DNA of 64,000 nucleotides from Escherichia phage EC.W2-6: the sequence record PP445229.1. One strand, written 5' to 3'. The notes beneath the pieces are model-generated. The model worked only from the letters and a program-made list of their open reading frames with translations, was not told the DNA's origin and searched no databases. Both the position numbers and the translations under genes were made by a program. Below are positions 7,472 through 8,087 of this stretch, piece by piece. Position 1 is the stretch's first letter, and each line of letters opens with the position of its first letter.

Positions 7472-7669
7472 ATGAAAAAGTGGATTGTTCGTGTACATGA
7501 TAACACGACTGGAGAGTTAGTAGCTGTAGATTTTGTTAAGACTCGAGAGCACGCACGTAGGGTCAAAAATCAATACAAATCTACTTTTAGACTTAATAAG
7601 GTTACACTAGGAAAAGCTATCGTGAATAGTGAAGGTGCTTTTTGTGTTAACAGTAAGGTTTATTATTAA
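7472..7669 (+). CDS. small protein, paralog 1 of a tandem triplet
   Basis: 65 aa; shares N-terminal Trp, central basic helix and C-terminal KVxYY with the next two ORFs. Confidence 0.55.
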   Translation: MKKWIVRVHDNTTGELVAVDFVKTREHARRVKNQYKSTFRLNKVTLGKAIVNSEGAFCVNSKVYY

Positions 7670-7878
7670 TGAGACCGATCACTATGAGACAATTTTGGTT
7701 AGCAAAGATTAAGTGGGCATCAGGTGGTATGACTATGACTGCACTACTCACTCGTCAACAGGCTCGAGATTTTAAAAAGTCTATGTTCAATGTAGACTTA
7801 ACTAAGAGCATCAGTATTCATAAGGCCAAGGAGTATTCTTCTGGTCGTGTTTATATCAGCGGAAAGGTACATTACTAA
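7669..7878 (+). CDS. small protein, paralog 2 of a tandem triplet
   Basis: 69 aa; TAATG start/stop overlap; ends GKVHY. Confidence 0.55.
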   Translation: MRPITMRQFWLAKIKWASGGMTMTALLTRQQARDFKKSMFNVDLTKSISIHKAKEYSSGRVYISGKVHY

Positions 7879-8087
7879 TGAAAAAGATGTGGGCTATTCA
7901 TGTTGTTTGGGATCTTGAGCAACACATGAGAAAAGATAACATCAAATTGTTTGACACTCGCAAAGAGGCTCGTATTGCTAAGAAACAGTTGAAGACTCTG
8001 GGCACAATAGTAAAAAGCGCTGACATACATCGCTGGTATGAAGACCCTAACACTGGTTCTTTTATGTCTAAAGTAATTTACTACTGA
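7878..8087 (+). CDS. small protein, paralog 3 of a tandem triplet
   Basis: 69 aa; TAATG overlap; ends SKVIYY. Confidence 0.55.
   Translation: MKKMWAIHVVWDLEQHMRKDNIKLFDTRKEARIAKKQLKTLGTIVKSADIHRWYEDPNTGSFMSKVIYY

Follow-up and report, generated by a model that had tools for sequence, protein, structure and literature searches.

The window analysed here is the whole 64,000-nucleotide stretch of Escherichia phage EC.W2-6 (PP445229.1), given as one strand from 5′ to 3′. Between positions 7,472 and 8,087 it carries three consecutive small genes, referred to below as A, B and C, which follow a dCTP deaminase gene and precede a promoter. Their products are very basic, single-domain proteins of 7.5-8.3 kDa and every record labels them "hypothetical protein". 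At the same coordinates, bases 6900-8500 show 100% identity to those of Escherichia phage EC.W8-1 (PQ030848.1), a Kuravirus of the subfamily Gordonclarkvirinae (phiEco32-like), and 97-99% identity to those of many relatives. The features of the locus are the following:

6938..7471, + strand: dCTP deaminase gene (Pfam DCD, 3.5e-34), the upstream neighbour of the array in all related loci.
7460..7474, + strand: junction between the dCTP deaminase gene and A; Shine-Dalgarno-like AAAGGTG at 7460-7466, stop codon TAA at 7469-7471, ATG at 7472-7474.
7472..7669, + strand: paralogue A, 65 aa, pI 10.1, net charge +8; equivalent to phiEco32 gp71 (phi32_71); accessory member.
7655..7671, + strand: junction between A and B; AAGG at 7655-7658, 10 nt before the ATG; TAATG at 7667-7671.
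7669..7878, + strand: paralogue B, 69 aa, pI 10.4-10.6; equivalent to phiEco32 gp70 (phi32_70); core member.
7864..7880, + strand: junction between B and C; AAGG at 7864-7867, 10 nt upstream of the ATG; TAATG at 7876-7880.
7878..8087, + strand: paralogue C, 69 aa, pI 9.8, net charge +6; equivalent to phiEco32 gp69 (phi32_69); core member.
8088..8128, + strand: P68 middle promoter (gp36/gp79-dependent), core AATGTATA at 8113-8120, located by motif search.

The stop codon of the dCTP deaminase gene directly abuts the ATG of A (TAAATG, 7469-7474), and the two junctions inside the array have the TAATG overlaps that a first-pass annotation of the letters had reported for these three consecutive ORFs. 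The AAGG ahead of B sits in the Lys-Val codons of the C-terminal SKVYY of A, and the AAGG ahead of C in the Lys-Val codons of the GKVHY of B. In other words, each downstream gene takes its Shine-Dalgarno sequence from the two codons that specify Lys-Val in the K-V-x-Y motif at the end of the preceding protein, and since the same codons serve both purposes, the protein motif and the translation signal constrain one another. C, which has no coupled successor, writes its K-V as AAA GTA, that is, in codons that do not form a Shine-Dalgarno sequence. AAGGTnnAnTAnTAATG is retained at every tandem junction examined, in 6 divergent phages; in phiEco32, Paul, SU7 and the related loci L005 and L007 the junction is kept as it is between A and B in the window. 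The same coincidence of Lys-Val codons and Shine-Dalgarno sequence was also observed at junctions in L003, L004, L005, L007 and L010. The TAATG overlaps, the internal AAGG and the conservation of the junction support the description of the locus as a tandem, probably coupled array of small proteins, and co-translation of the copies through this coupling is likely on these grounds. It is important to note that 1- to 4-base overlaps are frequent all along this operon, so that coupling is no special mark of the triplet.

Translation of B in this window is possible from 7669 or from 7684. From the TAATG start at 7669 the protein has 5 extra, non-conserved residues in comparison with the product of the internal ATG at 7684 (MRQFW..., 64 aa). 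The latter is probably the family-conserved start, because many orthologues of B have 64-65 aa and begin with MKKFW or MKRRW.

Comparison of single sequences by BLASTP relates the three products weakly, with values of 4e-4 for A-B, 1e-3 for B-C and 0.09 for A-C. When a separate alignment was made for the orthologues of each copy and the resulting profiles were compared by hhalign, the matches ran end to end, with values of 3e-10 (A-B), 1e-10 (A-C) and 3e-15 (B-C). All three proteins also match PHROG 4939: A at 1.2e-27 (residues 1-65 against 2-67 of 67), B at 1.5e-26 (residues 6-69 against 1-67 of 67) and C at 1.7e-28 (residues 1-69 against 1-67 of 67). The paralogy that had been proposed from the sequence is thereby established at the level of profiles, with a significant similarity in every pair; among the comparisons of single sequences, that of A with C (0.09) lacks significance. 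PHROG 4939 and gp69-71 of phiEco32 are the same family, and the window proteins are 91-99% identical to those of phiEco32, with the same order and neighbours. No mention of the paralogy of gp69-71 and no description of their fold were found in the accessible literature, and a literature search on PHROG 4939 and on Kuravirus anti-defence returned no functional data. The family is, then, already catalogued, and it is shown here to be an old set of paralogues with a defined fold and signature.

The signature was read from an alignment of 118 family sequences which are otherwise ~25% identical. Its invariant columns are M1, W5, T27, R28, A31, R32, K35 and Y69, and K39 is conserved in 78% of the sequences. 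The invariant Trp lies in strand 1, and T-R-x-x-A-R-x-x-K opens the helix. A, B and C all carry W5...T27-R28-x-x-A31-R32-x-x-K35...C-terminal Tyr and belong to a length class of 64-82 aa, and the features recognized at the outset as common to the three ORFs, namely Trp near the N-terminus, a basic helix and KVxYY/HY at the C-terminus, reappear in the alignment. The C-terminal ends are SKVYY in A, GKVHY in B and SKVIYY in C. Across the family the final Tyr is found in 98% of the proteins and is preceded by Y, H or E; the ending in an aromatic pair, as it was first described, is therefore a property of A, B and C but not of the family. The isoelectric point lies between 9.7 and 11.1 in 109 of 109 family proteins, and the net charge of A, B and C between +6 and +10.

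The predicted structure is common to the copies as well. AlphaFold2 gave two independent models, of A (pLDDT 87.6) and of C (pLDDT 84.7), with the same beta-beta-alpha-beta-beta topology, in which one helix of 13-14 residues accompanies a four-stranded antiparallel sheet; structure prediction, which had been proposed as a check of the paralogy, agrees with it. Orthologues of the other paralogues are represented in BFVD, and their models superpose with TM values of 0.63-0.86. In the model of A the last four residues (KVYY) have a pLDDT below 50, and the conserved C-terminal tail of this protein is apparently unpacked or flexible according to the prediction. Judging from helical periodicity, A31 and positions 34, 38 and 41 would form the buried face of the helix, and R28, R32, K35 and K39 a contiguous basic stripe on its flank. 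The spacing of this stripe, R28-R32-K35-(K39), is i, i+4, i+7, i+11, and its exposure is deduced from that periodicity and not from model coordinates.

Several collections of known proteins were compared with the family. In Pfam, 33 family members were scanned and none had a match at E <= 10, the DUF2188 model included; in PADLOC-DB and the NCBIfam HMMs no family appeared at E <= 1 save a chance match to TrpC (0.079); in the PDB there was neither a sequence-profile match nor a confident fold match to a family of solved structure. The best structural match was PsaD, a subunit of photosystem I, and this fold match is not confident. DUF2188 (PF09954; ~73 aa, in bacteria and phages) is similar in size to the gp69-71 family and, by eye, has a similar order of motifs, namely a W-x-V strand, a T-x-x-E-A helix start, an x-I-H strand and a Gly turn, but neither the R-x-x-x-R-x-x-K stripe nor the C-terminal Tyr is present in it. 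For this comparison 120 PF09954 proteins were retrieved, and hhalign of the gp69-71 family against 109 DUF2188 sequences gave a non-significant probability of 5.8%, with P = 0.0065 over 29 columns. The local alignment is in the register of the motifs, and the kinship was set aside as a lead only. DNA-mimic anti-restriction proteins such as Ocr and ArdA, which have an acidic surface, were ruled out, given the pI of 9.8-10.6 and the net charge of +6 to +10 of A to C. Small proteins such as phiEco32 gp79, T7 Gp2 and T4 AsiA resemble gp69-71 in their size and in coming from the non-structural part of a lytic-phage genome; unlike them, they are single-copy RNA polymerase binders, and they share no sequence or structural similarity with gp69-71. 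The gp79 gene lies ~7 kb upstream of the triplet and is transcribed in the same direction. In RNA polymerase pull-downs from phiEco32-infected cells only gp36 and gp79 were found (PMC12276001).

Small hypothetical phage proteins encoded in tandem are nothing unusual in themselves, and the age of this array had been misjudged, since it was first taken for a recently expanded family. The protein identity among the window copies is 20-28%, and no DNA-level repeat was detected among the three units. In a neighbour-joining tree of the 118 sequences, the orthologues of A, B and C (40, 21 and 36 sequences, respectively) form three monophyletic clades, with an identity of 71-83% inside clades versus 25-30% across them, and the copies group by type and not by genome. 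The three clades, the low identity between them, the lack of a DNA repeat and the presence of B and C in all members of the subfamily show that the duplications are old and took place before Gordonclarkvirinae radiated. The idea of a young expansion is corrected accordingly.

Pairwise Nei-Gojobori dN/dS lies at 0.29-0.41 in A, at 0.08-0.21 in B and at 0.20-0.23 in C, and purifying selection acts on the three genes. In the flanks, the dN/dS of the dCTP deaminase gene is 0.01-0.07 and the dN of gp68 is 0; protein change in A, B and C is ~10 times faster than in these neighbours. The dS of B and C also exceeds that of the flanks, and this suggests an exchange of alleles at both genes. Variation is concentrated in the beta1-beta2 loop and in the beta3-beta4 hairpin, and several alternative versions of the C-terminal hairpin are present among C orthologues. 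Gene conversion between paralogues was also considered, as some C orthologues have a B-like tail; the scores of these tails to B and to C are nearly equal, and conversion is not claimed.

A sceptical reading would hold that the similarity is due to chance, or that the copies are non-functional leftovers or selfish duplicates carried passively. The BLASTP value of A-C and the absence of the products from the proteome of SU10, described below, could be quoted in its favour, but it can hardly be credited in view of profile comparisons of 1e-10 to 3e-15, an intact ORF for each copy in 64-98 independent genomes, dN/dS values of 0.08-0.41, confident fold predictions and eight columns invariant in 118 sequences. 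A, B and C are almost certainly genuine, ancient and selected paralogues.

The family is narrowly distributed. A word-indexed search of 5.8 billion proteins returned 92 clusters, all of 64-87 aa, which are all orthologues of A, B or C encoded on phage contigs of ~77 kb, and when 1.84 billion representatives were searched exhaustively with a profile, only 20 clusters were obtained at E < 1e-3, all of 65-79 aa. By tblastn against 50,697 phage records, C was found in ~98, B in 98 and A in 64, and all positive records are Escherichia or Shigella phages. Every one of the ~98 Gordonclarkvirinae records, Suseptimavirus included, has the B and C types, and about two thirds of them have A. The 69 core genes published for the phiEco32 subgroup include phi32_69 and phi32_70 but not phi32_71. 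Protein C has no relative in 185,579 species genomes (one per bacterial species); nothing points to copies in bacteria or prophages. A six-frame scan of the window with the family HMM found A, B and C only, with no fourth copy. According to these searches the family is restricted to Gordonclarkvirinae and their metagenomic relatives. More distant phiEco32-like phages were also inspected: Foldseek against BFVD gave small proteins of Salmonella phage SE131, Aeromonas phage LAh_8 and Cronobacter phages GAP52 and 009, a likeness at the level of the fold only, and they were not retained as homologues. The family HMM had no match around the dCTP deaminase and gp68 genes of SE131, LAh_8, GAP52 and Proteus P59, nor in the equivalent loci of Grimontviridae and Lahexavirus phages, and the small ORFs which occupy that slot in distant phages are unrelated acidic proteins or thioredoxins.

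Inside the subfamily the slot is constant and the number of copies is not. The order of genes is primase-helicase, 3'-5' exonuclease, nucleotidyltransferase, dCTP deaminase, the array, gp68, Dps/ferritin-like, thioredoxin and ThyX, and the array lies between the dCTP deaminase and gp68/Dps genes in the window, phiEco32, Bas90, Paul, SU7, L005, L007/8, L015, L017 and L020. It has two members, of the B and C types, in SU7, L015 and L017, three in the window, phiEco32, Bas90, Paul and L005, and four in L020 (3-905). Extra copies occur between the thioredoxin and ThyX genes, namely one in phage Paul (L010 5001-5204) and two in L007-L009 (L007 4771-4986 and 5001-5213); the corresponding gap in the window (9570-9584) has 15 nt and holds no family copy. 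Some assemblies (P0073, P0089, and the phage records EcK-vB, PV591327, and EcM-vB1, PV574017) have a frameshifted A, of which only residues 1-58 are matched and which continues into the region of B to give a product of 79 aa; the cause may be a faulty assembly or a true loss of A.

This arrangement invites the proposal that the paralogues form a hetero-oligomer which works with the product of a neighbouring gene, either as a regulator or scaffold of dCTP deaminase or ThyX, or together with the gp68-Dps pair, instead of binding nucleic acid by itself. Coupling at every tandem junction over deep divergence would favour a fixed stoichiometry, B and C always co-occur, and family copies are found only beside the genes of dCTP deaminase or ThyX, both enzymes of the dTTP pathway. 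In the predicted models, moreover, the two-layer fold leaves one face of the sheet free for pairing, and the tail of A seems flexible. Against this, a copy number which goes from 2 to 4, with 2 further copies elsewhere, is awkward for a fixed complex, overlapping starts are common operon-wide, and the adjacency to these enzymes may be a coincidence in a densely packed module. The proposal is thus improbable as an explanation in its own right, although it is compatible with either of the two roles discussed below, nucleic-acid binding or anti-defence.

The expression of the triplet can be approached from the promoter behind it. The 72-nt spacer after C is identical to that of phiEco32 and also to the "middle promoter between CDS68 and CDS69" of SU10 (PMC4281155 S2 Table). 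The consensus of gp36-dependent promoters is tAATGTAtA, of which AATGTATA is the core (PMC8948821), and P68 itself is a gp79-activated middle promoter that has been used in vitro and for the cryo-EM open complex (PMC12276001). A second exact TAATGTATA is present on the + strand behind the PhoH gene, at 12281-12289. P68 marks the downstream end of the unit containing the triplet, of which C is the final gene; no terminator-like site was found after C. Upstream of the triplet, there is no gp36-type promoter on the + strand of the window in positions 1-8112, and this, together with the position of P68 behind C, makes the triplet the tail of a long unit which would start at distant sigma70 early promoters.

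Secondary sources conflict on the boundary between early and middle genes in phiEco32-like phages. In SU10, the "early" class comprises genes 69-125, including gp79, the primase-helicase and the dCTP deaminase (PMC4281155), and CDS69-71 are the last "early" genes, upstream of P68 (PMC4281155 S1 Table), whereas in the Severinov-lab and YF01 papers gp79 and the genes of replication and nucleotide metabolism count as middle genes (PMC8948821, PMC9965538). The triplet is situated past the dCTP deaminase gene and ahead of the Dps/thioredoxin/ThyX genes. The primase-helicase gene is upstream of it, and it is no part of the promoter-proximal cluster of host-takeover ORFans; "delayed-early/middle" is a fair description of its temporal class. 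The first assignment of the array to an early region is consistent with the list of the SU10 paper, but it fits less well with genes that are found amid those of replication and nucleotide metabolism, at the promoter-distal end. Among the 34 proteins detected by proteomics in an SU10 lysate, gp68, Dps, thioredoxin and the nucleotidyltransferase are present and the products of CDS69-71 are absent. Short proteins rich in Lys and Arg are poor tryptic targets.

The inclusion of CDS69-71 among the early genes by one source bears on the possibility, raised already in the first-pass annotation, that the family consists of inhibitors devoted to anti-defence or host takeover, in which each paralogue would neutralise a different host protein or defence variant and the array would be the product of an arms race. 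Small, lineage-restricted proteins with a copy number of 2-4 (+2) are in line with it, and so are their protein evolution ~10 times faster than that of dCTP deaminase and gp68, the high dS of B and C and the alternative C-terminal hairpins of the C orthologues. In addition, Gordonclarkvirinae are reported to be markedly resistant to restriction-modification, and neither an inhibitor nor a DNA modification that would account for this is known (PMC11990801). On the other hand, the genes are embedded among those of replication and nucleotide metabolism, away from the promoter-proximal early ORFans; B and C belong to the core and are missing from no member of the subfamily; dN/dS is well under 1; a pI of ~10 is the opposite of that of the acidic DNA-mimic anti-restriction proteins; and there is no match to any known family. 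Furthermore, an invariant stripe in all the paralogues argues for one ligand and not for many targets. An anti-defence role is on balance unlikely, though better placed than a hetero-oligomer tied to a neighbouring enzyme.

The explanation favoured here is that A, B and C are co-produced basic paralogues which serve as nucleic-acid-binding accessory factors, and a probability of about 0.4 is given to it as a whole. The three proteins would be made together, in roughly equal amounts, by termination-reinitiation, and their production would take place at the delayed-early/middle stage, beside the enzymes of replication and dNTP synthesis. They would act as small accessory factors which bind a polyanion, most simply nucleic acid, in the form of phage DNA or RNA. 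The R28-R32-K35-(K39) stripe would be the common binding surface, on the flank away from the hydrophobic face formed by A31 and positions 34, 38 and 41, and the packing of W5 on A31 would hold the helix in place over the sheet. Differences in specificity or protein partner among the paralogues would come from the beta1-beta2 loop, the beta3-beta4 hairpin and the ...KVxY tail.

Nucleic-acid binding is preferred because of the universal positive charge, the invariant Arg/Lys stripe and the DNA-metabolism neighbourhood; the invariance of the stripe among ~25%-identical paralogues implies a common ligand. Sso7d/Cren7, p6 of phage phi29 and TF1 of SPO1 are strongly basic DNA-binding proteins of 7-10 kDa, and the phage examples are encoded with replication genes. 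They provide the functional analogy behind the favoured explanation, as gp69-71 are likewise small and basic. Taken by itself, nucleic-acid binding by A, B and C is put forward tentatively: a basic surface might equally bind an acidic protein, the products are missing among the 34 proteins of the SU10 lysate, and fast evolution with allele mosaicism suits an interaction with the host better than a housekeeping role. A further step, which is quite improbable, would be that the family forms a new class of small basic proteins and shields the replicating phage genome or blocks host nucleases or defence sensors. If true, this would explain the broad resistance of Gordonclarkvirinae to restriction-modification, and several paralogues, possibly joined in a hetero-oligomer bound to DNA, would deal with different threats.

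Kuravirus and its relatives are common therapeutic candidates against pathogenic E. coli, and about two thirds of their genes have no assigned function. As a conserved multi-copy set in the replication/nucleotide module, for which the sequence and structure searches gave no relative of known function, gp69-71 are a reasonable target for deletion and binding experiments, and the analysis yields a structural hypothesis for them: a single helix with a basic stripe, loops that vary and a C-terminal tail that is conserved.

Some observations concern the neighbouring genes. Upstream, the segment 5510-7471 encodes a nucleotidyltransferase (with a weak PolyA_pol head domain, and a weak Gad2 match in the orthologue of Paul) and the dCTP deaminase. 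The authors of the BASEL collection suspect that a DNA modification which depends on this nucleotidyltransferase/dCTP deaminase locus is behind the restriction resistance (PMC11990801); the downstream ThyX and thioredoxin genes would be just as compatible with simple dTTP synthesis. No Rfam family and no tRNA gene came out of the scans of the 64-kb window (1-64000). YF01 and like relatives are reported with one tRNA-Arg(TCT), the counterpart of which may lie within the 12 kb of genome beyond the window. Downstream, the gp68 homologue (8160-8489; 109 aa, PHROG 10984) has 100% amino-acid identity in more than 50 records and a dN of 0 among four Kuraviruses, and it is still recognisable, at 31-37%, in relatives infecting Salmonella, Proteus, Cronobacter and Aeromonas. 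It is served by a promoter of its own, its product was detected by mass spectrometry in SU10, and in every case its last bases overlap the first bases of the Dps-like gene. The latter (8482-9045) bears the label "integrase" in GenBank, yet it is ferritin/Dps-like (Pfam PF00210, 2.5e-7), and its counterpart is named Dps-family DNA-binding protein in phiEco32 and Bas90. In a similar way, an ORF of 84 aa at 13204-13458 carries an "autotransporter adhesin" label without Pfam support.
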